Of a DNA stretch of 55,361 nt, positions 190 through 55,361 are shown piece after piece. The DNA is from an uncultured Candidatus Saccharibacteria bacterium (GTDB lineage Bacteria; Patescibacteriota; UBA1384; JACPKC01). How positions within the stretch are numbered: the stretch's first letter is position 1; every line of letters starts with the position of its first letter. The translations under genes were made by a program, and so were the position numbers. Below the pieces are notes generated by a model, which did not search any database, was not told the origin of the DNA, and saw only the letters and a list, made by a program, of their open reading frames with translations. The stretch lies in NCBI GenBank assembly GCA_964423885.1, contig CAYRGD010000001.1:237474-292834 (forward strand). Direction: 5' to 3'.

Positions 190-230
190 ATCCCCGCCGT
201 TTTGAAGAAACATTATAAAACGGCGGGGAT
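190..230. terminator. Hairpin terminator downstream of the erm-like gene, possibly bidirectional
   Basis: 14-bp inverted repeat ATCCCCGCCGTTTT (190-203) / AAAACGGCGGGGAT (217-230) with a 13-nt loop, 18 nt past the erm-like stop. The core is GC-rich with A/T flanks, and the trailing U-tract is only moderate. Confidence 0.55.
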
Positions 231-247
231 TGCTCCCTCAACACAAC

Positions 248-1141
248 TTATCTATTCTCCCGCCAATTTTTCGCTGTTCGCGTTCGATGAATCTTTTGTA
301 GAGATTTTTGTTGTGTGCCCAGTTTTGCATACGCACCTTTAGTTTTCGCTTGTCGAAAACCCTCAACATTTTTTGAGAAGTAGTCGAAAATACCGAGCCA
401 TTGTTTAAAAGTTAGGTCTGTAGGTTTTGCCGAAGCGTCAAATCCATAATCGGTAGCTAAGCGTAAGAATTGCACATGACCGAAAACATTTGTATAACCC
501 TTTTTCAAATTTACTTTCATACTGGAAAAACCGAAAGCTACGAAATCCCGAAATGCTTCCGCATTTCGATTTTCAACAAGCGGTCGTTCCAGTTTTTCTA
601 TCCGCAACAAAACCGTATCTACGGCAGGACGAGGGGAAAATTCATTTTTCTGAAATTCATAAACTTTATTGAATGCAAACCAAGGTTTATGAAGAACAGA
701 AAAAAGTGTTTCTGATTTGAAACCACTATATTTTTCAGCTGCTTCTTTTTGCATAATCAAATAACTATCAGCGGGACTGTGCTCACCATCGAATAATTTT
801 CTAACAATATCAGCGGTTATGTTAAACGGAATGTTAGAAAAAACCTTATACTCATATTTTGGCAAAGAAAATTCGAGAAAATTTTGATGATAAATTTCTA
901 TATTAGGGAAAGAAAAAAATTTGTCTTTCAACTCCAAATACAAATTTTTATCAGCTTCTACTGCCAAAACTCGCTTGCAGTGCTTTGCAAGCACGCTAGT
1001 GATTATTCCCTTACCTGGTCCAATTTCAAGAACAATATCATTTTCTAATGACGAATTTTGTACTAGCTTTTCTACTAACTTTGGGTCGCGGAGGAAGTTT
1101 TGGGAATGAGATAATTTTGTTTGTATGTCGTGAGTGTTCAT
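248..1141 (-). CDS. erm: Erm-type 23S rRNA (adenine-N6)-methyltransferase (macrolide-lincosamide-streptogramin B resistance family)
   Basis: 297-aa ORF with HSQNFL, EIGPGKG (SAM site) and YKVFSNIPFNITADIVRKL. It is colinear with ErmC as I recall it (SQNF, EIGSGKG, YKIFGNIPYNISTDIIRKI), not with KsgA. It has an extra ~45-aa basic C-terminal tail. Confidence 0.85.
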   Translation of the reverse strand: MNTHDIQTKLSHSQNFLRDPKLVEKLVQNSSLENDIVLEIGPGKGIITSVLAKHCKRVLAVEADKNLYLELKDKFFSFPNIEIYHQNFLEFSLPKYEYKVFSNIPFNITADIVRKLFDGEHSPADSYLIMQKEAAEKYSGFKSETLFSVLHKPWFAFNKVYEFQKNEFSPRPAVDTVLLRIEKLERPLVENRNAEAFRDFVAFGFSSMKVNLKKGYTNVFGHVQFLRLATDYGFDASAKPTDLTFKQWLGIFDYFSKNVEGFRQAKTKGAYAKLGTQQKSLQKIHRTRTAKNWRENR

Positions 1142-1145
1142 AAAA

Positions 1146-2168
1146 TTAAGAAGATTTTACCAAGTCCTTAATTCTCTTTGTTGTCGCTTCAAGCTCCTTC
1201 CAATTTTTAGTGTGAGCGTTCCACGCCATACCAGCAAGTCCTATGTGGAGTTCACAAGCGCGAAGCCGCTCATCAAAATTTGTGATTTCAACCCCCTTTT
1301 CCCCAAAATATTGCTTTGCTGTGGTTATCCAATTTATTTTCTCTATTGTAGGGTGCAAGGGAGCCCAAAAAGTAAAATTCGCAAGATCATAGAGAAAATC
1401 GCCATACATCGAGTTGCCCCAATCAATAACTGCCGATATTTTTCCGTCCGCCGATAACACGTTGAAGTGCAACAAATCGGTATGGACGAGATGCCGAGAT
1501 TCGTAACTTTTTTCAGCTAAAATTTTCAATCTATCGGCTATTTGGTCAAAGAATTCAATTCCTTGCGGGGACGCTTCCAAAGACGCTCGCCAACCATGAA
1601 TTTTGCTCGCTGGATGGTCGGCTCCAACGGCAAGCAGAAAGTCTCGCCAACTTGAATATTGACCTATCTCATTCTTGTTCCAATGTCCGTAGCCTATTGT
1701 TGTAGAAATGTCTGCTTGCCGAAGTGCGTCTAGCATATCCATAATTGAAGGAACTATTTTTTCCATTTCGTTTTGCCCCAGTTCGTCAATCATGATTCCG
1801 GCAGAGCGTTTGGAAATAGCAAAATGGTGTTCAAGGGCAATACCGGCTTCGGTTATAGTCGGAATTAATAGTTTTTCAGAAGAATACTTTGAGGCAATCC
1901 GGTCTTTTTCATACGATTCGTCTTCGTTTCCGAAACGAATAACATAATCGTTATCGGCATGTCGGAAGAAAAAAGCTTGCGACCACAAACCTCTACCCAC
2001 AGGTTCAGCATTTATGACTTCGTCACTAAAATGTGTTGAGAGAAATTCTTTAGCTTGGTCAAATCGAATTGCTACCGGATGATTATATGCGGTTGATTGT
2101 CGCTCTACGGGTGAAGTAGTTTTACTTTTTTCAGGAGTTGAATTCATAGTATTATTGCAATAGTTCAT
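1146..2168 (-). CDS. Aminoglycoside phosphotransferase, APH(4)/hygromycin B phosphotransferase-like
   Basis: 340-aa ORF. The catalytic block SRHLVHTDLLHFNVLSADGKISAVIDWGNSMYGDFLYDLANF and GQYSSWRDF are colinear with my recollection of Hph/APH(4)-Ia (VRHLVHADFGSNNVLTDNGRITAVIDWSEAMFGDSQYEVANI; GQYTTWRDF). An alternative start is Met8 at 2147. Substrate cannot be proven from sequence. Confidence 0.8.
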   Translation of the reverse strand: MNYCNNTMNSTPEKSKTTSPVERQSTAYNHPVAIRFDQAKEFLSTHFSDEVINAEPVGRGLWSQAFFFRHADNDYVIRFGNEDESYEKDRIASKYSSEKLLIPTITEAGIALEHHFAISKRSAGIMIDELGQNEMEKIVPSIMDMLDALRQADISTTIGYGHWNKNEIGQYSSWRDFLLAVGADHPASKIHGWRASLEASPQGIEFFDQIADRLKILAEKSYESRHLVHTDLLHFNVLSADGKISAVIDWGNSMYGDFLYDLANFTFWAPLHPTIEKINWITTAKQYFGEKGVEITNFDERLRACELHIGLAGMAWNAHTKNWKELEATTKRIKDLVKSS

Positions 2169-2358
2169 TGACCTTTACACCAAGTGCCTCAGCGATTTTT
2201 TCAATCGTCGCAAGTGTTGGGTTTTGTTTTCCGGATTCTATGTTGCTTATGTATGCACGATCAACACCAAGCGCTCGGCAAATGTCGCCTTGCGACATTT
2301 TCTTGCGTGTTCTTATTTTTCGCATATTTTCAGCTAGTTTTTTGGATGATTCGGACAT
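2152..2358 (-). CDS. XRE/Cro-CI family helix-turn-helix transcriptional regulator
   Basis: 68-aa ORF with a canonical HTH_3 core (MSQGDICRALGVDRAYISNIESGKQNPTLATIEKIAEAL). Its stop abuts or overlaps the aph start, so XRE-aph-erm look like one operon. Confidence 0.85.
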   Translation of the reverse strand: MSESSKKLAENMRKIRTRKKMSQGDICRALGVDRAYISNIESGKQNPTLATIEKIAEALGVKVNELLQ

Positions 2359-2420: not shown

Positions 2421-2690
2421 ATAGTTATGAAAGCGGCGAAGCAAAACCAAAAATTTCCTTTCCATTTCTTTTTCCGCTTCGCGGCGGAGGGGTGGGGGGA
2501 GGAGGCGCGAGAAAAATGCAAGGAAATTTTTTGGTTTTTGCACACGCGAGTCCGCGAGCGTGTCCGAGGCGCATTGGTACGCATCACCGCGGAATCGGAG
2601 CGTACAATGCAGTTTCAAGCCACCACGCGCTCCGCGCGTGCGAAGTTACGGATTTTGCTCGAAATGGGTTCTAACTTTTTCAAACAAACA

Positions 2691-2823
2691 CCACCAAATT
2701 TGATTTGCATCAGAATTGACCGCGCCCGCGCCAAAGGCGCGGGCTTGGGCTGGCATTTCCGCCAAGAAATTCCAAGGGGTTTTGAATTCCGCCAAAAGCA
2801 TTCCCGCCGAAAGGCGGCGGTTC
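2691..2823 (+). repeat. Left copy (IR-L) of a perfect 133-bp inverted repeat
   Basis: Checked base by base: 2691-2823 is the exact reverse complement of 4303-4435 (133/133). It starts with CCACCA and contains GC hairpins GCCCGCGCC-AAA-GGCGCGGGC (2724-2744) and CCGCC-GAAA-GGCGG. Confidence 0.97.
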
Positions 2824-2926
2824 CACAAGCTAACGCTTGTTCTGTGCTTCGCACAGGAGCCGATGCAGAGAGATTGCAAATTGTCGATGTAAGTGTAATG
2901 CCTTTATCAATTTAATTCCCGAAGCT

Positions 2927-4459
2927 ATGACAAAATATTTTATCTATTGTAGAAAATCGAGCGAGGACGAGGAACGCCAAATATTGAGCATTGAGGCGCA
3001 ATTGACGGAGCTTCGGGAATACGCCAAGCAACAAGGTTTATTTATTGTTCGTGAGTATTATGAAAGTAAAACGGCAAAAGAGCCTGGTCGTGAGGTATTT
3101 AACGAAATGCTTGGCGAAATTGAAAAAGGCACTGCACAGGGAATTTTAGCGTGGAATCCCGACAGATTGGCGCGCAACTCGATAGATGGCGGTCGTGTGA
3201 TATATCTCGTTGATACTGGCAAAATCACCACGCTAAAATTCCCTACATTTTGGTTTGAGCCAACGCCACAAGGTAAATTCATGTTGTCTGTGGCGTTTGG
3301 TCAAGCAAAATATTACACCGACAATTTGCGAGAAAACATTTTGCGCGGTATTCGCCAAAAGATACGCCGTGGTGAACTATCGGCAAAAGCCCCTCTCGGT
3401 TATTTCAACGAACCGCGACTTCGGACGATTGAACCTGATAGAAAAACCTTTGCGAAAGTAAAGGAGTGTTTAGGGGCTTTTGCTACGGGACAATTTACGC
3501 TCACTGGTATTCAGCGCAAAATGTTTTCTGTCGGCTTGGTTGGCAAGACCGGCAAGCACCTCGCCCTTGCCTCGGTTGAACATATTTTGACTAATCCCTT
3601 TTACTACGGACATTTTCAATATCGTGGCGAAGTGCATGCCGGATCGCATAAGCCAATGATTTCAAAGAAACTTTTTGACCAAATTCAAGAGGCGCGTATT
3701 ACGAATGGTAAACCCCGTAAAAAGCGAGGACCAAAGAATTTTCAGTTTTTAGGTTTTGCTACTTGTGGGGTATGTGGATATGCGATAACCGCCGAACGGC
3801 ACATAAAGAAAAGTGGTTTGAAATTTATTTACTATCGTTGCACCCACAAGAGCAAAACTATTTCGTGTACTGAAAATCGCTTTTTGCGGGAAGAAGTGCT
3901 AACCGAGCAAGTGAAAAATCTTTGTCAAAAAGTTTCTTTGCCTGACGAGTGGCGGGAAAAATATATTGCTCGCCTTGATAGCGAGCAATCGGAATCCCGC
4001 CACTCGTCAGACCTTTTCGCTCAAAATCTCCGCGATAGTATTTCCGCCATTAAAATGCGACTGGAGCGACTTACAGACGCATATTTAGGCGAGGCGTTGG
4101 AACTTACCGAGTATCAAGAGAAAAAGAATATTTTAATGGCGGAAAAGAAAACGATTGAGGAGAAATTGAGTGATTTTGAACGAAAAGGCAATCATTGGCT
4201 CGAACTCATGCGAAACTGGATTATTGAAGCCAACCAAGCCGAAAATCTCTCTAAACAAGAAAATCTTTCGGGGATGAAAGATTTTCTTGTGGACATCGGC
4301 TCGAACCGCCGCCTTTCGGCGGGAATGCTTTTGGCGGAATTCAAAACCCCTTGGAATTTCTTGGCGGAAATGCCAGCCCAAGCCCGCGCCTTTGGCGCGG
4401 GCGCGGTCAATTCTGATGCAAATCAAATTTGGTGGACCGTACCGGATTCGAACCGGTGA
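2927..4459 (+). CDS. Large serine recombinase (resolvase-type catalytic domain, recombinase domain, zinc ribbon and coiled coil)
   Basis: Motifs are YCRKSSEDEERQILSIEAQ (catalytic Ser), WNPDRLARN, a Cys cluster CGVCGY...YYRCTHK...SC, and a long coiled-coil. ATG 2927 (Met31 of the TTG-initiated 2837 ORF) was chosen because it lies just upstream of the YxRxS motif; the SD is weak. There is no stop before IR-R, so about the last 51 codons are encoded by IR-R plus the tRNA-Ala gene. Confidence 0.9.
   Translation: MTKYFIYCRKSSEDEERQILSIEAQLTELREYAKQQGLFIVREYYESKTAKEPGREVFNEMLGEIEKGTAQGILAWNPDRLARNSIDGGRVIYLVDTGKITTLKFPTFWFEPTPQGKFMLSVAFGQAKYYTDNLRENILRGIRQKIRRGELSAKAPLGYFNEPRLRTIEPDRKTFAKVKECLGAFATGQFTLTGIQRKMFSVGLVGKTGKHLALASVEHILTNPFYYGHFQYRGEVHAGSHKPMISKKLFDQIQEARITNGKPRKKRGPKNFQFLGFATCGVCGYAITAERHIKKSGLKFIYYRCTHKSKTISCTENRFLREEVLTEQVKNLCQKVSLPDEWREKYIARLDSEQSESRHSSDLFAQNLRDSISAIKMRLERLTDAYLGEALELTEYQEKKNILMAEKKTIEEKLSDFERKGNHWLELMRNWIIEANQAENLSKQENLSGMKDFLVDIGSNRRLSAGMLLAEFKTPWNFLAEMPAQARAFGAGAVNSDANQIWWTVPDSNR
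4303..4435 (-). repeat. Right copy (IR-R) of the perfect 133-bp inverted repeat, fused to the tRNA-Ala 3' end
   Basis: Exact reverse complement of 2691-2823. Its outer 6 nt (TGGTGG, 4430-4435) are the last two acceptor-stem bases, the discriminator and the CCA of tRNA-Ala. Confidence 0.97.
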
Positions 4460-4505
4460 CCTCTTCCATGCCATGGAAGCGCTCTACCAACTGAGCTAAC
4501 GGCCC
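4430..4505 (-). tRNA. tRNA-Ala (anticodon GGC), CCA encoded
   Basis: The reverse complement GGGCCGTTAGCTCAGTTGGTAGAGCGCTTCCATGGCATGGAAGAGGTCACCGGTTCGAATCCGGTACGGTCCACCA folds as a cloverleaf. It has the G3:U70 Ala identity pair, anticodon loop AT-GGC-AT and T-loop TTCGAAT. Confidence 0.92.
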
Positions 4506-4554: not shown

Positions 4555-5544
4555 ATGCAACGCACGCCCAGGATCGTGGTGATCGGCGGAGGAACGGGCA
4601 GCTTCGTAGTCTTGAGCGGGCTCAAGGCGCACCCGGTCGACCTGACGGCCGTCGTCACGATGGCCGATGACGGCGGCTCGACCGGCGTATTGCGCGACGA
4701 GCTAGGCGTCCTGCCGCCGGGCGACGTCCGGCAGTGCCTGGTGGCGCTGTCGGAATCCGACGAACTCATGCGCGAGCTCATGAACTACCGGTTCGCCGCC
4801 GGGTCGCTGGCCGGGCACAGCTTCGGCAACCTGCTCCTGTCCGCGCTCGAAAAAGTGACCGGCAGCTTCGACACGGCGGTCGAGAAGGCAGCCGAGATCC
4901 TGCGCATCCGAGGCCAGGTCGTACCGGCCACGCTCGATACGACCGAGCTTGTCGTGACGCTCGACGACGGCCGCGAGATCCGCGGGCAGAGCACGATCCA
5001 CAAAACCGACCTATCCGGCATGCGTTCGATCACGCTGTCGCCAGCAGCCACCGCAAATCCGAAGGCACTCCGAGCGATCGAGCGCGCCGACCTTGTCGTA
5101 GTCGGTCCGGGCGACTTCTACTCGAGCCTGGTTCCTAACCTGTTGGTACATGGCATACCCGAGGCGCTGCAACGCACGCAGGGCACGGTCGCGTACGTGG
5201 CGAACCTTATGGCGAAAACCGGCCATACCGAGCGGTTCCATGTCGACGACTTCGTGGCTGTGATCGAGCAATACATGGGGCGTGCGGTCGACGCCGTACT
5301 CTACAACACCTACGTGCCCGCACGAACGCTCCTTGCGCGTTACGCCCGCGAGGGCGAGGCCATGGTCGACCCGACGCCGCAGCGCGGCGATCCGCGCTTC
5401 CACGGCCGCGACTTGATCAGTCGCACACTCCCCGAACCCCGCACCGGCGACCCGATCGAACGGACCCTCATCCGCCACGATCCTGAACGATTGGCGGAGG
5501 CGATCCTGCAGCTAACTACGCACGCAACTACCGCGGCTTATTGA
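4555..5544 (+). CDS. yvcK: YvcK/CofD-family protein (UPF0052, gluconeogenesis factor-like)
   Basis: The N-terminus IVVIGGGTGSFVVLSGLK...VVTMADDGGSTGVLRDELGVLPPGDVRQCLVALS is typical of the YvcK/CofD family. High-GC host composition begins here. Confidence 0.8.
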   Translation: MQRTPRIVVIGGGTGSFVVLSGLKAHPVDLTAVVTMADDGGSTGVLRDELGVLPPGDVRQCLVALSESDELMRELMNYRFAAGSLAGHSFGNLLLSALEKVTGSFDTAVEKAAEILRIRGQVVPATLDTTELVVTLDDGREIRGQSTIHKTDLSGMRSITLSPAATANPKALRAIERADLVVVGPGDFYSSLVPNLLVHGIPEALQRTQGTVAYVANLMAKTGHTERFHVDDFVAVIEQYMGRAVDAVLYNTYVPARTLLARYAREGEAMVDPTPQRGDPRFHGRDLISRTLPEPRTGDPIERTLIRHDPERLAEAILQLTTHATTAAY

Positions 5545-6337
5545 AAAACATCGGACTGACCGGCTCCAGTCCATGCGGCAGCGCACCAACCTCAACCCTG
5601 GTCGCAGCATTCTCACCTTGCTTTCCAGCGCTCAAGGCGTAGAAATGGAATCCGTCCGGATGACGTTCCGACACGAGAAACCGGCCATCGTCCATGTCGA
5701 CAAGCCGCCGGGCCGGATCCCTGAACCGGTCCGGCAAGTCATGCTGATCTTCCGGCGGACGGAGGTTTCCAGGGAAATTATGATTCGATGTCATGACAAG
5801 GTATTCCGTGTACGGCGCGTATTCTTCCGAATGCTCGATTCGATGACGGTACACCGTATACCAATTCTTATCCTTGTTCTTGTCATAGCTTAACTGGATC
5901 CCGAACACATCCGCCCGACGCATATCGGGACGCGACGTGACCGACACGCCGATATCGAAACTCATTCTGACTTCACTTGTCCGCAACTCGTCTATGTCGT
6001 TACCCTTCACGGTCGGGTCATCCGGAAGCAGTTCCGCCAACTTAACCATGCGTGCCGGAGCTTCCTGCGCGATCGGCGCAGTATAGAGTACCCAATCCTT
6101 CTCGACCGCTGGCGTCGACGGGTCGTCGTAGATACCGAACCCGCTGACCTCACCACGGCGATACGCCGGCTTTTCCCGTTCAAGGTTCGGTTGCGCCATC
6201 GCTTCGCGAGGGGCAAGGCCGGTACCAGCCAGCAGTCCGGTCAACGCGATCCCTTTCACTGCCCGAGCAAACGAGCTCCGGATGTCTTCGGGCCGCTGCT
6301 CTACCGGGCTGTAGCCGCCGGGTTCTCTCATTGCCAA
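5528..6337 (-). CDS. Hypothetical secreted protein
   Basis: 269-aa ORF with an N-terminal hydrophobic signal-like segment (AVKGIALTGLLAGTGLAPREAMA). Its start overlaps the stop of the giant gene upstream by 10 nt (same strand, probable operon). I recognise no family. Confidence 0.55.
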   Translation of the reverse strand: MAMREPGGYSPVEQRPEDIRSSFARAVKGIALTGLLAGTGLAPREAMAQPNLEREKPAYRRGEVSGFGIYDDPSTPAVEKDWVLYTAPIAQEAPARMVKLAELLPDDPTVKGNDIDELRTSEVRMSFDIGVSVTSRPDMRRADVFGIQLSYDKNKDKNWYTVYRHRIEHSEEYAPYTEYLVMTSNHNFPGNLRPPEDQHDLPDRFRDPARRLVDMDDGRFLVSERHPDGFHFYALSAGKQGENAATRVEVGALPHGLEPVSPMFFNKPR

Positions 6338-9300
6338 TCCTCACGCTCAGTATCAATTGTCACTGCTTGGGATACCGTAGGATCCGGAAGCACCGGCGTC
6401 AACCGTCGGCGACGGACGATAAGCCAGACAAGGACTACGGCAACCAGGATCGAGACCAATCCGATGAGGAGCCATTGTGTAAACTGGTGGCGGGCAGAGG
6501 CAACGACGATTGGCACCTCGAGCGACGTACCCGCCTCGTCGGTAATCGTGATCGTGTGGCTTCCTAGCGTCTCGGGTACCGGTACTGCCAGCTGCTGCGC
6601 ATCGCCGACAACCGGGTTGGTGCTCACCACCGTACCGTCGATCGAAACCGTTGCCGTTTTGCCGTGCAAGCCTTCGACGGCGACCGTAACAGCCGTACCC
6701 GCCTCGACGACATTGCTTGGCGCAGGCTCGGTTTCCCGCTCACCGGATTCCGACATGGTCACCGTCACCAGCGTGGCAGCGGGCTCTTCGATGGTCGACG
6801 GCGGTTCCGGGGCCGGGCTTTCGTCTACTGCCACGACAGGCGTGTCGGTCGGGCCGTTGGTCGTAACTTGCGGCTCGTCGGGCGGTAAGCGGCGTCCGTC
6901 TTTGGCATAGCCTTGCGCAGCCAACACGGCGTCGACCGACGGCATCGCGCCGCCGAGCGTCACCACTTTCTCGGCCATGATCTCGGCCGGTGCGTCGGCA
7001 TCGAGCAGCTGCCAGTACTGGTCGCTGTCGATCGTCAGCCAGTCGGCACTCCCCTCGAAGCGGATCACTGCGGTCGAGCCGTAGGTCTGGTATGGCAGCT
7101 GGAGGGTGATCGGCTGTCCCGGCGTAATCGTCTGTTGGTAGTTGAACGAGAATTCATTCGCCGGGTCGTTGATCAGTACGTTGACCAGCATCGTGAGCGC
7201 AGGCTCCGTCGACCGGACCAAGAGCTGCGACCCCACCTCTTCTTCCGGCTCGTTCCGCGGCACGTCAGTAGGCAGGTAACCCAGGAAATCCACTGCCGAT
7301 CCGCGATTCAGTACCGACACCGTTCCGGCCTTGCTGCTCGTTGTTCCTCGAAGAATCTTCGTCGGTACAGGCCGATAAGGAGCATAGGAAGCCTGCGTTT
7401 TCTTGGGGTCGGAGTAGCTGTACGCCCGAACCGCTACCGTCTTGCCGTTCTCCCGGCTCGACGTACCGAGCTTTCCGTTCGACCCGAAGTCTTCGGCGTC
7501 GAGCTGCCAGTAAGCGGCCTTGTTCGTATCGACCGTTTTCACGTTCGGGAAGAAGCCGTACAGTCCGAGCACCAGATCGAGTTGCGTCGTCGCGATCGTA
7601 CCGCCGGCAGTCTTCGTAAGCTCGACCGGGGATCCGGCCGGAAGCTTGTCCCGGAGCTGGGCAATGGTCTTGCTTCCACCGAGATTCGCGAGTACCGACG
7701 GGAGCGAGACAGGAGTCCAGGTCACCGCCCGCTGATTCAACGTCGGGCTCTTCAGCCACGCTCTGTTGTAGGGCACCGACATCCCGCCGATCGCATTGGC
7801 CTCGGACGGCAGCCCGTTAACCAAACTGCGGAACAACGAGGCTACCACCCAGCTCTCGCCGTTCATGGTGTTGCCGGTCGCACCGCGGTTATCGAATGTC
7901 ACGAAGCTCGGATTGATCAAGTTGAAGTTATTGAGGAAGTCGTTCCGCTCGTTCCGGTAGCACCACTCGCACCCCGCCTGATTCATAAGTCCAAGCCGAT
8001 GATCCAATTCAAGCGCCAGGAAATTGGCGAAGCCTTCGACGAACGAGCTTTCGGTGCTCTGGTTAAGATACCCCGCGTTCAAGGCGTTGAGCCCCTGGAA
8101 CGAGATCGTCTGCGCGGCCGACTTCTTGGACGTTCCAGGAACCTGCGGACCGTCGTAGTACCCATACCCGGCATATTCCCCGCTCGGATGAGCGATGCTC
8201 TTCAGGTACGAGGGCGTCAGGGCCTTGTCGGGCGTGTACATGTACCCGACGCCCTTGTCACCGTTGCCCGGATTGTTGATGAGGTATACCTGTTTTTCTT
8301 TATCGAAGCCCGTGATCACGACGGTATGGTTCCCTGCCGCGCTCGACGAGACAGTCGTGTTGAAAATAACGGGCGCACCGAGCGCAAGCGACCGGTCGAT
8401 GTGTTCGAGGAATCCCGGTTCATCCGGACCAGCCTCGAATTCCTTGTACTTCGCGTTCGCCGGATTCACGGCCCCGACATAGTTGTTGATTTTGCCGACA
8501 CGCCCACCGATGCCAAACTCGCAGACGTTATTCGCTTCCGAGAAATCCGCGGACCTACCGTTTTTCAGGTTGAAGTAGTCCTGGATCATGATCCGTGAGA
8601 CATCGACGCAGTTATTGGTAAGCCCCTGTGTGTATCCGGGAACATCGAGCCGCACGCCCGGATCAGGCACGCCGATTGTCCGGAAATCGCTCCCTGGCGT
8701 GTCGATGCCCATCCGTGCGAGTACCCAGTGGCCGAACTCATGGAGCTCGGTATGCGGGCTATAGGCTCCCTCCGCCCGGAGCTGCCAGACAGACTGCCCT
8801 AGCTGTATACTGCCGTCAGCGAACCGGGATGAAACATTGAACCCCTTCGGCAGCAACCTGACGTCAAGTTTGTCCGACAACGCCGGTCCACCGAACTCAT
8901 CCGTCGCCACCTCTCTCTTCGCAAGGTACAGATCGCGCCACAGCACCGAACTCATCACGAACTGCTCACGCCAATCCCGCTCGTTCGTCGATCCGGTGGG
9001 AAACGCCCAGGCATTCAGCGCGGCGAACGTACTCCCGGCAAAGTCGATCGGCAGTACGTACCGGTCATTTTGCTTCTTGAACGGTACGGTCGTCGTGCCG
9101 TCGGCATTCTGTTTCACGACCGTCATCTCGTCGAGGACGCCGTGCACGATGTCGGCTTCCTGGTGGCCGGCCGTCAGGAACGTCAGGTTCGCATCCGAGT
9201 TCTTGTATGCCAGCACGAGCCGAACCTTGTCGGCTACCTTCATGCAGGCATCGTCCAGCTTGCCATCGTCGTTCAGCCGATGGCCCGCTTCGGTTGCGAT

Positions 9301-12300
9301 CGCGTCGTGCGTACCCGAGCAGCTCACAAGGAGCGAAACTGGCTCCACGCCGGACACGGTATACGTCGAGGCATCGATAATATCGACGAACGCTCCCGGC
9401 ACCGGTTTGCCATGATAGCCGGTCGCAACGATCGAGACTGGCATGATCTGATCAAGCTGGTGGTCGCTGGTTGCTTCGAGCTTCGTGTCCTTCGGCTCGA
9501 TTGTCTTGGTGTTGACGACCAGGTCAGCGACCGGTTCCTTGGATTGCACGGTCGCAAGCGGGATCGCTTGGTCGGGCTCCAGGGTGTAGCCCGCTTCGTC
9601 GTCGGTCCCGCCGTTCGCCTCGCGGACTAACTCCCCAAGATCGCACGCAAGGACAAATCGCTTGGTCGGATCCGCTTCCTTCGCTTCCTTGGCGCAGTCC
9701 GTCTGCGTAATCTGCGCTTCCAGTGCCTTGGGCAGCTCGACATGCAATGTTTCATGCTTCACGTAGTGCGGTTCGTTGTCTTCGGACTGCGCCACGAGCT
9801 TGTTGTCCGCACCGACAACCAGGATGCCTGTGGCCGCCGTACTTACCCCTTGGCCGGCAGACTGCATCGTCGAGGGCATCGTCAGAACGATCTTCGGCGT
9901 ATCGGCAAGACGCATAGTCAACGACTTCTTTGCCATTTTCTCGACCAGATCGTCCTTCGATACCTGGACATCGATCGTCGCGGTGATCGGCTTGGTGAGC
10001 ATCGCCGCTATCCGGTCCGGCGCACGCGTTTCGATCGCAACGGTCTTCGTGCCGATGTCCGCTTCGGACGGAATGAACGTCAGTACCGCGTCGCCGTTTT
10101 CGATGACGGTCGTTTTAAACCCGAACAATCCGAGTTTCACGTACCATTTCTCTTTATCACCGAACTCCTTGGTCAGCTCGAGCTGTTTCGTTCCGACCTG
10201 ACTGTGTAGCGTGATCTTGAATTGCTTGCCGACGTCATTGGCGCCGATGGGGAACGAAAGGACTAATGACGTGCCATAGCCGGCTCCATTGTTCATGTAC
10301 AGGTCAAGCGGATCACAACCGGCCTGTGCCTGCGCCCGGCCGATGAGCGACCACATGGGATTCGCGCGTGTCTCGAACACCGACGAGCAGTTATACGCCT
10401 TGGCATCCAATGTCAGCTCTTGATCGGCCTCAACGGTCAACGGGAAATCCTGAAAGACACCGGCTGCTTGGGGCAGCATAACGCGCAGCTTCTCGTCGGC
10501 CACCACGGCTGCACCCAGGTTACGCGCGTAGATAGCCTGGCTGGCCTTGGTCTCGCTCCATTGCCCGGTGGCCACCTTGCCGAGCGACGCGAACTGCGCG
10601 CCGGACGTCTTCTTCCAATTCTGCTGATCGAGCGAAAACTCGTAGCCGGGGATGAGTTTGCCGCTGCCGTCGACGATGCCCACGGCCAGGTCTTGGCCGG
10701 CGAAGTAGTCCTTGAACCGTTGCCGGTACGGGAACGCCGCGACATTGCCTTCCACGTACAGCGGCTTCGTATCCGTGGGATATCCTTGCTCCGTGCGCGT
10801 CAGCGTCTGGTCGGCGTTCTGTGCCTTGTCCCAACCGTCGACCACGAACTCGAGCTTGGTGCCCGCTTCGTCGCCGGCCGTGATTTTCGGCGGCAGTGCG
10901 GAATCGTCGACGTTCTTCGTGGGTACACTGAACTTGTACGTATTGAAGCTCGCCGTCGACCATGACCGCTGGCAATTATCGATCTGGCCGCTACCGCCCG
11001 GCGACTTATAGCCGTAGTATCCGTTGACGCTGAGCGAGATCGAGCCAACGATAGTACCGAAACCGCTAAAGGTCAGCGGCGACGACCCGGTGACCGACTC
11101 GGGGGTCATGGTTCCCGCATACAGGCTGACGCCAGGAGCGAACCGAGAGATGCTTGTCGACTTGATCGTCCGGTTCTGCGCCGTGAACTGGAGCGCGATC
11201 GGCTTGACCTCGCTGCCGCCGACGAACACCGGTTCCTGGGGCACACCGGTCAATGCCACCTTCAAGATCGCGCTGTCCGGCGGCGTACTGCGCAAGTAGA
11301 TCGTGTCGGACGTAGCCGCGTTCCCAGCCTGGTTGGTATATCTGACAGCGACTTGAAAATCCCGAACCGTCAACGGCGAGCTCTTGGCCAACGTAAACCG
11401 CTTTTTCTTGGACAAGACACTGATAACCTTGTCGTCGGCGTCCCGCTGCACGTCGAACAATTCGTGCTCAAAGGCATCCGGAGTCATTGTCCACCGGAAC
11501 CCGCGCGCCGAACTGGTCGTGTAGTAACCGACGAAATCCGACGATTCGGCACTGCTCGCGCCGTCCGCCGACACAACAAGATCCTCTCGGTTACAGAACG
11601 AGTTGGCAAAGACGCCCAGAATACCGTTCTGGAAATACGCCTTGAGCCGGTTGTAGTTCTTGGGCGTAAGGCCGTCGATGCGGGCGTCGACGGTGGTGAT
11701 GATCGCACCATTGCCGTCCGGCTGAGCCTGCTGCTTCGCGGCGATCGTCGCTGCCGAATCATACGTCGTGAGCCGGGTGCCGGTATCGGATGTCAGGCTG
11801 ATATGGAAAAAATCGAGCGTCAGACTAGCCTTGAACGGCTTACCGTCGGTATCGACCGGCCGGTCGCACGATACGGCGATCGTATACGAACCCGGACGAG
11901 GCACGTGGCGGAGCGAGACCGAAGCCTGCGTCGCCGAACCGTTTTTGCCCGCCCGGACATTCGGCGCCTTGTCGCCGGGTTTCAACACGAACTGCTTCGG
12001 ATCGGGAACATTGAATTCCTGGATCACCAGTTCCAAGTCGCTGTCCTTGTAGTCCGTGAGTTCGGGTATGTCGATGGCCGGCGCGTCGATGTCGATCGAA
12101 TCCAGCGTGACGGTCGCCGTCTCGTTCAAGTTGAGCCACATCGACGCGGAGGGATTTTGTCCGGCATGTTCGAATTGCTGACGGCCGTCTTGCGTCGTGA
12201 AGCTTGCGCAACCTGCGATCGTATCCGCGGTCGGTCGGCGCTGCGTGAGCACGAATGCCGTGGCGCCGATCAGCGACAACGTGGCGAGTACGACCGATAT

Positions 12301-12318
12301 CCTGGCACGTTTCGACAT
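6328..12318 (-). CDS. Giant (~1996 aa) membrane-anchored surface protein with HExxH metallopeptidase-like and C39-like cysteine peptidase-like segments
   Basis: A single uninterrupted ORF. The start was trimmed to ATG 12318 (MSKRARISVVLATLSLIGATAF, signal/TM) because GGGGAGGG lies 5-6 nt upstream. HEFGH is at 8728-8742, and the NNCVDVS...GNHTVVITGFD...YLINNPG pattern at about 8300-8616 resembles papain/C39-like peptidases. The C-terminus has a TM helix plus RRRR stop-transfer (WLLIGLVSILVAVVLVWLIVRRRR). Confidence 0.75.
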   Translation of the reverse strand: MSKRARISVVLATLSLIGATAFVLTQRRPTADTIAGCASFTTQDGRQQFEHAGQNPSASMWLNLNETATVTLDSIDIDAPAIDIPELTDYKDSDLELVIQEFNVPDPKQFVLKPGDKAPNVRAGKNGSATQASVSLRHVPRPGSYTIAVSCDRPVDTDGKPFKASLTLDFFHISLTSDTGTRLTTYDSAATIAAKQQAQPDGNGAIITTVDARIDGLTPKNYNRLKAYFQNGILGVFANSFCNREDLVVSADGASSAESSDFVGYYTTSSARGFRWTMTPDAFEHELFDVQRDADDKVISVLSKKKRFTLAKSSPLTVRDFQVAVRYTNQAGNAATSDTIYLRSTPPDSAILKVALTGVPQEPVFVGGSEVKPIALQFTAQNRTIKSTSISRFAPGVSLYAGTMTPESVTGSSPLTFSGFGTIVGSISLSVNGYYGYKSPGGSGQIDNCQRSWSTASFNTYKFSVPTKNVDDSALPPKITAGDEAGTKLEFVVDGWDKAQNADQTLTRTEQGYPTDTKPLYVEGNVAAFPYRQRFKDYFAGQDLAVGIVDGSGKLIPGYEFSLDQQNWKKTSGAQFASLGKVATGQWSETKASQAIYARNLGAAVVADEKLRVMLPQAAGVFQDFPLTVEADQELTLDAKAYNCSSVFETRANPMWSLIGRAQAQAGCDPLDLYMNNGAGYGTSLVLSFPIGANDVGKQFKITLHSQVGTKQLELTKEFGDKEKWYVKLGLFGFKTTVIENGDAVLTFIPSEADIGTKTVAIETRAPDRIAAMLTKPITATIDVQVSKDDLVEKMAKKSLTMRLADTPKIVLTMPSTMQSAGQGVSTAATGILVVGADNKLVAQSEDNEPHYVKHETLHVELPKALEAQITQTDCAKEAKEADPTKRFVLACDLGELVREANGGTDDEAGYTLEPDQAIPLATVQSKEPVADLVVNTKTIEPKDTKLEATSDHQLDQIMPVSIVATGYHGKPVPGAFVDIIDASTYTVSGVEPVSLLVSCSGTHDAIATEAGHRLNDDGKLDDACMKVADKVRLVLAYKNSDANLTFLTAGHQEADIVHGVLDEMTVVKQNADGTTTVPFKKQNDRYVLPIDFAGSTFAALNAWAFPTGSTNERDWREQFVMSSVLWRDLYLAKREVATDEFGGPALSDKLDVRLLPKGFNVSSRFADGSIQLGQSVWQLRAEGAYSPHTELHEFGHWVLARMGIDTPGSDFRTIGVPDPGVRLDVPGYTQGLTNNCVDVSRIMIQDYFNLKNGRSADFSEANNVCEFGIGGRVGKINNYVGAVNPANAKYKEFEAGPDEPGFLEHIDRSLALGAPVIFNTTVSSSAAGNHTVVITGFDKEKQVYLINNPGNGDKGVGYMYTPDKALTPSYLKSIAHPSGEYAGYGYYDGPQVPGTSKKSAAQTISFQGLNALNAGYLNQSTESSFVEGFANFLALELDHRLGLMNQAGCEWCYRNERNDFLNNFNLINPSFVTFDNRGATGNTMNGESWVVASLFRSLVNGLPSEANAIGGMSVPYNRAWLKSPTLNQRAVTWTPVSLPSVLANLGGSKTIAQLRDKLPAGSPVELTKTAGGTIATTQLDLVLGLYGFFPNVKTVDTNKAAYWQLDAEDFGSNGKLGTSSRENGKTVAVRAYSYSDPKKTQASYAPYRPVPTKILRGTTSSKAGTVSVLNRGSAVDFLGYLPTDVPRNEPEEEVGSQLLVRSTEPALTMLVNVLINDPANEFSFNYQQTITPGQPITLQLPYQTYGSTAVIRFEGSADWLTIDSDQYWQLLDADAPAEIMAEKVVTLGGAMPSVDAVLAAQGYAKDGRRLPPDEPQVTTNGPTDTPVVAVDESPAPEPPSTIEEPAATLVTVTMSESGERETEPAPSNVVEAGTAVTVAVEGLHGKTATVSIDGTVVSTNPVVGDAQQLAVPVPETLGSHTITITDEAGTSLEVPIVVASARHQFTQWLLIGLVSILVAVVLVWLIVRRRRLTPVLPDPTVSQAVTIDTEREDWQ

Positions 12319-12396
12319 ACTACCCTCCCCTGTTGTTTGTACTGTCACAGAAGGCGCCGGATCCCGCAAGGGACGCGCCGCGTTGCATCCGTACAC

Positions 12397-12427
12397 GCAA
12401 ACAGCAGCCGAATTGGCTGCTGTTTGC
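12397..12427 (-). terminator. Strong hairpin between rpsJ and the giant gene
   Basis: Perfect 13-bp stem GCAAACAGCAGCC / GGCTGCTGTTTGC with a 5-nt loop, 25 nt downstream of the rpsJ stop. There is no clear U-tract. Confidence 0.5.
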
Positions 12428-12451
12428 ACAGGGGTACCGAAGCTAGAGGTT

Positions 12452-46319: not shown

Positions 46320-46393
46320 TGGCTCCGGGACTTGGATTCGAACCAAGATTGATGGCTTCAAAGGCCACTGTCCTGCCATTAGACGATCCCGGA
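46320..46393 (-). tRNA. tRNA-Gln (anticodon UUG), CCA encoded
   Basis: The reverse complement TCCGGGATCGTCTAATGGCAGGACAGTGGCCTTTGAAGCCATCAATCTTGGTTCGAATCCAAGTCCCGGAGCCA folds as a cloverleaf. It has the U1:A72 pair typical of bacterial tRNA-Gln, anticodon loop CT-TTG-AA and T-loop TTCGAAT. Confidence 0.9.
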
Positions 46394-55167: not shown

Positions 55168-55242
55168 GGACCCGTAGCTCAGTGGTAGAGCGTTCGGTTC
55201 ACATCCGAAAGGCCGCTGGTCCGATCCCAGCCGGGTCCACCA
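55168..55242 (+). tRNA. tRNA-Val (anticodon CAC), CCA encoded, atypical T-loop
   Basis: GGACCCGTAGCTCAGTGGTAGAGCGTTCGGTTCACATCCGAAAGGCCGCTGGTCCGATCCCAGCCGGGTCCACCA. The acceptor is GGACCCG/CGGGTCC and the anticodon loop is TT-CAC-AT. The T-loop reads TCCGATC (C where the near-universal U55 is expected). Confidence 0.8.
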
Positions 55243-55361
55243 TAATGAATTTGCAGAGGAATTGACCTCGCCGCGCGCAAAGCGCGCGGCGCGGGCAGAT
55301 GTTTGCGCCCAGTCCCGCCAAGGCATTTTTAATTACGCCAAGAACACTTTAGCCGCTACGC
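55237..55361 (+). repeat. Diverged copy of the tRNA-proximal module of the 133-bp repeat (probable end of a second related element)
   Basis: After CCACCA, the first 25 nt match the IR 18/25 without gaps (shared ATTTGCA and GAATTGACC). The next element is a GC hairpin with the same AAA loop but different stem bases (CGCCGCGCGC-AAA-GCGCGCGGCG at 55269-55291, versus GCCCGCGCC-AAA-GGCGCGGGC). CCGCCAAG is shared further on. The sequence turns AT-rich and the window ends. Confidence 0.6.

Follow-up and report, generated by a model that had tools for sequence, protein, structure and literature searches.

The DNA stretch analysed here (the window, 55,361 nt) comes from an uncultured Candidatus Saccharibacteria bacterium, and two of its tRNA genes, tRNA-Ala(ggc) and tRNA-Val(cac), are followed by the same short arrangement of sequence. 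What is this module, and why does it recur next to a second tRNA? A preliminary description, made from the letters of the window, had attributed it to a family of elements that dock on the shared end of different tRNAs. We consider it likely that tRNA-Val carries a second integrated element of the kind which resides at tRNA-Ala and which encodes a large serine recombinase (LSR), and that the module is the attL-type junction of this second element on the tRNA side.

Coordinates refer to the window, with negative values for positions of contig C1 to the left of it; its right edge is the true end of C1. The genome searched has 816 kb in 10 contigs. Genes for tRNAs were called by ARAGORN, RNA families were assigned by Rfam, and protein domains by Pfam and NCBIfam. 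The tRNA-side arm of an element is referred to as R, the conserved flank outside the internal arm as F, and the longer F arm as F-ext; numbers with L and G denote loci and genomes.

The module at tRNA-Val and the element at tRNA-Ala

Both tRNAs end in GGTCCACCA, and the features noted in the preliminary description are all present in the sequence. The first 25 nt past each tRNA are identical at 18 positions in an ungapped count on the two sequences, a GC stem with an AAA loop is centred 38 nt past ...GGT in both trailers, and CCGCCAAG follows further downstream in both. The stems are GCCCGCGCC/GGCGCGGGC for Ala and CGCCGCGCGC/GCGCGCGGCG (55269-55278 and 55282-55291) for Val. In a gapped BLASTn search of the whole genome, the Val trailer matched the Ala trailer with 70.7% identity over 123 nt (E-value about 1e-13), so the similarity, which might have proved insignificant, is well beyond chance. 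The genome holds three copies of the module: the two tRNA-linked ones and an inverted internal one (Table 1). The module is also the 3' coding end of a recombinase gene and, in the case of the Ala copy, is repeated in inverted orientation on the other side of that gene.

The arm at tRNA-Val consists of the core, ca. 25 nt of site DNA on the element side (55243-55267), the hairpin and a 3' coding remnant of a recombinase gene on the minus strand, to which the LSR C-terminus can be aligned with 44-45% identity over 42 aa (tBLASTn). It belongs to a subfamily other than that of the Ala arm: 99 of 130 positions are identical to the arms of L114 and L118 (76% to L114), which are full elements with the same hairpin stem, compared to 86 of 134 (64%) for the Ala arm.

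The far end of the tRNA-Val element was located on contig C7. C1 stops 8 nt before the expected inner end of the arm, and C7 starts inside a far-end arm. This F-ext arm (C7:1-348) belongs to the subfamily of the Val arm, encodes WWSLYQKVRTYFQQNPE* in the LSR frame (the tail open reading frame, ORF, is intact), ends with ...ATAATGA and is followed by CCACCA (C7:349-354). Past this CCACCA there is GC-rich host DNA with a signal-peptidase I-like gene (lepB, C7:367-996). The far side is thus an end of an element and not plain host DNA, a finding that would have been awkward for the docking idea had it turned out the other way. In the relatives, a lepB orthologue is located directly downstream of tRNA-Val(cac) in 10 of the 12 loci examined, including all three from the same genus, in which the spacer has ca. 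15-50 nt by eye; in the other two, lepB is preceded by tRNA-Val(gac) in one case and lacks a tRNA upstream in the other. As tRNA-Val adjoins lepB in relatives, this is a comparison between an occupied and an empty site. The Val element is predicted from these sequences to sit between tRNA-Val and lepB, with C1(+) and C7(+) as neighbours, because its far end (F-ext, CCACCA, lepB) opens C7. Its interior would be unassembled because the assembly broke at the inverted repeats of the element. That the assembly breaks at multi-copy elements had been anticipated and is borne out, with C1 stopping near the inner end of one arm and C7 starting within the matching far-end arm. The corresponding expectation for the other edge holds in part: the window does stop 119 nt past tRNA-Val and does begin with island DNA on its left, but there is no contig break on that side. 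In that direction C1 runs on for 237 kb, and window -494 is the end of the island.

In one relative (L174, which is G006:C7, positions 1105-1500), the spacer between tRNA-Val(cac) and lepB is AT-rich and has about 400 nt; it may be a remnant of some other insertion. Contig ends are also shared elsewhere in the assembly. The start of C1 and the end of C8, a contig which begins with an apparent 16S rRNA 3' end, have a near-identical stretch in common with few differences, and C10 opens with an exact copy of the final ca. 50 nt of C7. These are more repeat-driven assembly breaks.

The Ala element is complete, has a length of about 4.9 kb and shows the order tRNA-Ala, R' - LSR - R, F-ext - cargo (XRE, APH-like, Erm) - F-ext', host. 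Two nested pairs of inverted repeats flank the LSR gene and the cargo (133 nt with 100% and 284 nt with 98% identity), and the arm supplies the last ca. 46 codons of the LSR gene. The protein carries the domains Resolvase (PF00239, 2e-19), Recombinase (PF07508, 2e-9) and Zn_ribbon_recom (PF13408, 8e-8), all exceeding their cut-offs, which agrees with the recombinase type proposed in advance, and it has full-length homologues with 64-94% identity. Its N-terminus begins with MTKYFIYCRKSSEDE, which we take, by eye, to fit the N-terminal R-x-S-S/T motif with the catalytic serine. The last 45 nt of F-ext (2646-2690, minus strand) encode an alternative LSR tail, CLFEKVRTHFEQNP*, as part of an ORF at 2646..2879(-). 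At the far end, window -494, TGGTGG plus the reverse complement of F meets GC-rich host DNA, and the GC content jumps to the host level. Within the cargo, the Erm-type protein scores 233.4 bits against a cut-off of 212 (NCBIfam), while the match to APH(4)-Ia is under its cut-off. Neither the ORF listing nor Pfam or NCBIfam revealed a second recombinase among the genes of the element, which are LSR, XRE, APH and Erm. An empty site was sought for the Ala element as well, but none was found: its host-flank DNA matched none of 12 relatives, and the DUF1697-like protein encoded in the host flank matched just 3 distant genomes, in which the loci were not inspected for an adjoining tRNA-Ala.

Table 1. 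Features of the elements at tRNA-Ala and tRNA-Val and of their surroundings in the window
Feature	Position	Strand	Remarks
Cargo	248..2358	-	XRE-type helix-turn-helix protein 2152-2358; APH-family kinase 1146-2168; Erm-type 23S rRNA methyltransferase 248-1141
F-ext arm	2428..2690	+	284-nt inverted repeat, 98%: 2428-2711 vs. window -508..-225
Internal inverted copy of arm R	2691..2823	+	hairpin 2724-2744; 133-nt perfect inverted repeat of 4303-4435
LSR gene	2927..4459	+	510 aa; last 24 nt antisense within tRNA-Ala
Arm R'	4303..4435	-	adjoins tRNA-Ala; hairpin 4382-4402; encodes LSR residues ca. 460-505 on the + strand
tRNA-Ala(ggc)	4430..4505	-	ARAGORN; target of the complete element
tRNA-Gln	46320..46393	-	ARAGORN; third tRNA of the window
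tRNA-Val(cac)	55168..55242	+	ARAGORN; Rfam tRNA 69.2 bits; intact, CCA encoded; host (B-type) half of the left junction
Common core CCACCA	55237..55242	+	tRNA positions 71-76; also C7:349-354
Arm R of the tRNA-Val element	55237..55361	+	cut 8 nt short by the contig end; BLASTn, tBLASTn
GC hairpin CGCCGCGCGC-AAA-GCGCGCGGCG	55269..55291		no T-run after it; covariation on 44 arms
In-frame stop in the recombinase frame	55333..55335	-	32 codons before the WW encoded by CCACCA; sense codon in relatives

Two further observations were made in this region. Window -190..200 (L001 7279-7669), which belongs to the cargo side of the Ala element, is taken up by a tandem direct repeat of ca. 206 nt with 84-91% identity; it spans a scaffold gap (10 N, window -9..0), lies just upstream of the Erm-type gene and could be a leader/attenuator region or an assembly duplication. 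Near the tRNA-Ala locus there is an ORF of 2033 aa (6328-12429, minus strand), which looks like a giant surface protein, with an N-terminal signal/anchor and a C-terminal membrane segment as judged by eye.

Attachment site, recombinase tail and hairpin

The arm boundary is CCACCA in all six elements compared, and CCAC(C) in 22 of the 23 distinct far-arm flanks. Because the junction identity starts exactly at the CC of CCACCA, we infer that the crossover occurs within CCAC. A GTTC motif is positioned 5 nt further from the core in F than the corresponding T-loop motif in the tRNA (6/6 elements). A 5-nt difference in motif spacing between attP and attB is also described for LI integrase in the published text (PMC3783163).

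In the LSR frame, F encodes a protein tail that is kept in 22 of the 23 distinct F flanks: (W/M/L)W(C/S)(L/I)(F/L/Y)x(K/E)(V/I)RT(H/F/Y)(F/Y)(E/Q)(Q/E)NP. The Arg codons of this tail are synonymous (AGA, CGG, CGA), which indicates a coding constraint. Together with 2691-2823, F-ext appears to make up an intact attP-like site F|R. The LSR segment occurs in both orientations, as is typical of an invertible segment: the LSR points away from the tRNA in L075 (where it is 98% identical to that of the window) and L051, and reads into F in L050 and L065.

A mechanism can be proposed on this basis. Upon integration, the core CCACCA would rebuild the tRNA end. The excised form would be circular and contain F-ext|R twice, in inverted orientation, each copy having about 400 nt and an attP-like site; the LSR gene would span attP, and the full-length LSR would read across attP into F. 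Integration at attP would then swap the tail ...WW-CLFEKVRTHFEQNP for a short tail from the antisense tRNA, as found in the window, and a flip between the R arms, which the LSR or homologous recombination could perform, would restore the long conserved tail. The tail swap would tune the activity of the recombinase. In its full form, the proposal makes the LSR gene a self-regulating invertible cassette in which the swap of a 14-20-residue tail gives isoforms that differ in activity or direction (integration vs. excision); we put this forward tentatively and think it rather doubtful. The part concerning tail swap and inversion switch is much less certain than the claim of a second element.

The hairpin in the arm recurs with a changing sequence. 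In most of 59 arms, the best hairpin in a perfect-stem search is centred 29-41 nt past the core, and there are at least 12 distinct stem sequences. In a MAFFT alignment of 44 arms, 86% of the cells were pairing, compared to 69.1 +/- 1.7 in 500 shuffles, none of which reached 86%. All nine hairpin pairs are altered on both sides; slid controls gave 28-61%. Covariation thus supports the view, taken on the basis of two stems in the preliminary description, that the hairpin is a selected structure. The peptide encoded across it is not conserved (ARAFGAG, AEGRSPE, RAEGEGE and others), and therefore selection acts on the nucleic acid. Our best guesses for its role are a putative border insulator between the tRNA and antisense transcription of the LSR gene, or a putative site for a dimeric factor.

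Some side observations concern the hairpins. In otherwise identical metagenome arms, the loop is AAA in some and TTT in others (also AGA/TCT), for example in L038, L052, L063 and L068 vs. L053 and L057; this gives the impression that the hairpin itself flips. At the inner ends of the arms, within the LSR frame, there is another small hairpin, CCGCCG...CGGCGG, with a T-rich tail (4306-4322 on the plus and 2804-2820 on the minus strand). It is kept in relatives, with variable loops, and terminator-like sites at the inner end of R (4306-4322) are no more numerous than in shuffled sequences. Elsewhere (G000:C1:90860-90938), ARAGORN called a tRNA with a four-base anticodon (cacc; Val or Gly), which is followed by a canonical hairpin plus T-run terminator.

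Distribution of the family and mobility

The Ala arm matched 13 of 60 other genomes of the class, which are scattered across families. An arm of the Val type was found within the class only in G020, among 161 other genomes, and later in L114 and L118 by way of their LSR loci. In the metagenome sample (51 contigs matched by a pattern of the first 31 nt of the arm), the arm abuts either the 3' end of a tRNA (Ala cgc/tgc/ggc, Val cac/gac, Thr ggt) or an F-type flank.

Relatives of the LSR were found at no fewer than 545 loci in species-representative genomes. The best 80 of these are 66-94% identical, and most of them are from metagenome-assembled genomes titled Patescibacteria or candidate phyla radiation (CPR), including Nomura-, Sacchari-, Lipton-, Kaiser-, Woese- and Berkelbacteria and others; the few short contigs with other labels among these 80 are probably due to mis-binning. 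The occurrence of LSRs with 66-94% identity in very different CPR lineages points to active horizontal spread. We analysed the 69 genome loci which contain the LSR 3' end. In 61 of them, the final 22-27 nt of the LSR gene lie antisense within a tRNA gene (55 Ala, 2 Val, 2 Ser, 1 Ile, 1 Glu). The remaining eight comprise four at a tmRNA, two cut by contig ends, and two at tRNA- or tmRNA-like sequence which is not called by ARAGORN. The idea of an element family docking on the shared ...TCCACCA end of different tRNAs is thereby corroborated.

Of 48 informative loci, 42 have the R inverted repeat, with near-perfect arms of 124-136 nt which flank the LSR gene alone. This recurrence in independent loci rules out that the inverted repeat is an assembly artefact. 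Among 22 long loci, 21 have the R repeat and 17 have the F-ext repeat around a cargo of 1.3-5.2 kb. Cargo genes sampled code for NUDIX/Ham1 proteins, C5 and N6/N4 DNA methylases, an OLD-family ATPase-TOPRIM protein, GrpB/DUF218 proteins, a histidine kinase with an LssY/PAP2 protein, and NAPRTase.

Reduced and composite forms were also encountered. Palindromes of about 100 nt that lack an LSR gene occur in the metagenome contigs L062, L063, L064, L074, L076, L077, L079 and L081; they consist of the two outer arm halves around the hairpin and are located between an F flank and a tRNA end or other sequence. The two hairpin stems also form short direct repeats between the arms, which could account for these miniatures; they are probably the products of deletion between the hairpin stems. 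L065 (oriented copy, 4960-5075) combines the inner 44 nt of one arm with an F flank that belongs to another subfamily and is followed by CCACCA, and the start of the same contig carries a second LSR paralogue with 54% identity. This mosaic suggests recombination between, or tandem accretion of, different elements.

Parts of the window occur in 20 public sequencing runs from 11 studies (wastewater, sludge, aquatic). Logan contigs from the runs X1, X3, X4 and X5 were compared, in which contig depth is not a measure of copy number. Contigs from X1 contain the host flanks plus the element. In contrast, those from X3, X4 and X5, which belong to other studies (wastewater/aquatic), contain cargo and LSR pieces (L001 7626-11800) at about 100% identity, with zero to few differences, and without the host flanks. 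One record from X5 diverges from the reference at L001 6982, which is within the attR core (6979-6984), and several different continuations were seen past the 5' end of the tRNA. Joints of the "skip" type with short sides (20-30 nt, in one case 79 nt) were not trusted.

Searches for free forms yielded little. Neither a close relative of the LSR nor a free form turned up in the viral-contig and plasmid collections searched: the viral contigs gave two partial N-terminal matches at 69%, and all plasmid matches had less than 60% identity (best: 27.6%). In addition, none of the 51 metagenome contigs has a terminal overlap indicative of circularity.

Alternative explanations and known systems

Several observations speak against a second element with the attachment site and switch proposed above. 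Given the in-frame stop in the Val arm, the Val copy may be impaired or decaying. The interior of a Val element and a second LSR gene were not found in the 10 contigs of the genome. Solo arms without LSR do occur elsewhere, for example in L054, where one is located next to tRNA-Val(gac) and followed by ordinary genes. Dyad symmetry is not evident in the F|R site (7-10 of 36 matches at shift 0), and the 5-nt offset of GTTC may stem from the Val-Arg-Thr codons of the tail and not from protein-DNA recognition. In none of the 69 genome loci does the LSR read into the F flank (65 read into tRNA or tmRNA and 4 are without a clear assignment), a strong orientation bias from which it follows that inversion may be rare. 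Finally, no circle junction, empty site, excision joint or inversion joint was present in the contigs from X1 and X3-X5, which cannot show rare forms.

Some of these points would fit a decayed element of which only a solo remnant (scar) is left at tRNA-Val, with arms and junctions but no working recombinase, or else a miniature that lacks an LSR and relies on the enzyme of the Ala element: the stop in the LSR frame of the Val arm, the lack of a second LSR in the assembly, and the existence of LSR-less forms in other contigs (the solo arm of L054 and the palindromes described above). A simple scar should, however, have assembled through, as the one in L054 did. Instead, C1 and C7 both break at arm boundaries, which suggests that each arm is present a second time in the sample, in inverted orientation, and the tail ORF at the far end is intact. 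We thus regard a scar or miniature as unlikely. A transposon resembling an insertion sequence, in which arm, recombinase and arm move apart from the cargo, is brought to mind by the near-perfect arms that flank the LSR gene alone in 42 of 48 loci. It is well established that serine recombinases invert, and do not excise, the DNA between inverted sites. Moreover, the end of the unit is placed at the far F-ext, past the cargo, by the extent of the low-GC island, by the second repeat pair and by the point at which foreign contigs diverge, and an arm-LSR-arm unit away from a tRNA or F junction was not seen in the loci examined; such a transposon is therefore very improbable.

Even less can be said for explanations in which the module belongs to the tRNA transcript. 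It follows directly after two tRNAs and has a covarying GC hairpin at a fixed distance from the tRNA end, as might be the case for a small RNA or a cis-regulatory RNA that is co-transcribed with the tRNA. In the Rfam search, only tRNAs passed, all other hits being far under their gathering scores and at chance level at E <= 1, so that the module matches no known RNA family. The inner part of the module is under protein-coding constraint as the LSR C-terminus, and the module is duplicated in inverted orientation away from any tRNA. We attach very little weight to an RNA of this kind and still less, to the point of rejecting it, to a generic tRNA trailer or intrinsic terminator of the organism, a possibility that had been kept in view from the outset. 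All of the 45 tRNAs of the genome have an encoded CCA, and since the module follows just two of them, it is no generic terminator. The native tRNA terminators of this genome are hairpins with T-runs 15-28 nt downstream, whereas the element hairpins are at 38 nt and are followed by TTGGGCTGGC (Ala) and CGGGCAGATG (Val), neither of which has the T-run of an intrinsic terminator. The same arm also occurs after many different tRNAs in the 51 metagenome contigs, and in the relatives tRNA-Val adjoins lepB without the module. Weighing this evidence, we retain a second integrated LSR element as the likely explanation for the module at tRNA-Val.

Parallels to parts of this organization are known. In the Mu Gin/G segment and in shufflons, inverted repeats flank a segment whose flip swaps the C-terminus of a protein; here, by contrast, the flipping segment would carry the constant recombinase body, and the flanks would provide the alternative tails. 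The yeast 2-micron circle likewise has inverted repeats, and a circle split by two inverted repeats would have two isomers. Large serine integrases of the phage type mostly target protein-coding genes.

The closest known system is that of the ssrA islands of Dehalococcoides (PMC3146451), which according to the published text have a CcrB-like serine integrase of about 540 aa (DsiB) next to attL on the reverse strand and variable cargo; the integrase gene itself includes the repeat of the tmRNA 3' end. The likeness is an LSR at the 3' end of a tRNA-like gene, tmRNA being the target in 4 of our 69 loci. As described there (PMC3146451), the Dehalococcoides system has a 20-bp direct repeat, a small serine recombinase DsiA and more module genes. 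The Ala element differs in having neither a 20-bp direct repeat (it has CCACCA plus a weak or partial match) nor a DsiA-like companion, and it does not fall into the DsiB family by these features. As far as that text goes, it also differs in its two nested pairs of inverted repeats, in the putative tail swap and in tRNA-Ala as the main target. The text of PMC3146451 does not contain the term "inverted repeat".

The phage-type integrases LI/A118, Bxb1 and phiC31, with attP and attB of 40-50 bp, have the same three-domain protein and a short shared core and, in the account given in PMC3783163, a motif 5 bp further out on the element side, to which GTTC may correspond here. Compared to what is described for them, the elements reported here have a tRNA tip as target, an integrase gene that would span attP, a putative inverted duplicate of attP, and no evident dyad. 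Islander-type islands at tRNA and tmRNA genes (PMC4383910) are similar in that insertion is at the tRNA 3' end, the end is restored and the integrase gene lies next to the tRNA; their described integrases are tyrosine integrases, and a displaced tRNA fragment forms the direct repeat, as opposed to a serine recombinase and a 6-nt repeat here. Integration-dependent switches are described for mycobacteriophage BPs and its relatives (PMC4557955 and PMC3694055); in BPs, attP is within the repressor gene, the integrase is a tyrosine integrase, and the tail which is removed is a degradation tag. The likeness is an attP within a gene and a protein C-terminus that is altered by integration; here, the gene would be that of the serine recombinase itself.

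In the literature consulted, no description of the CPR family or of a twin inverted attP was found; members could be listed in supplementary island tables, for instance those of PMC3146451 or of the Islander/TIGER papers. Islands of serine integrases at tRNA-like genes are already known, and it is the build which is unusual for a serine integrase: the tip of tRNA-Ala or tmRNA as target, a gene apparently spanning attP, and a putative inverted duplicate of attP. The family is widespread in CPR and apparently undescribed. The ultra-small CPR bacteria have tiny genomes for which few mobile elements have been described, and this family is represented by 545 or more copies in species-representative genomes. 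Its cargo slots are small and carry resistance-type genes (Erm, APH-like), DNA methylases, OLD-family nucleases, NUDIX/Ham1 and NAD-salvage genes. The family also explains a recurrent break point of CPR assemblies, as many contigs end within arms. If the switch were to prove true, its isoforms would provide minimal elements with built-in directionality without a separate directionality factor. The unusual build may be of interest to those who mine serine integrases as tools for genome engineering.

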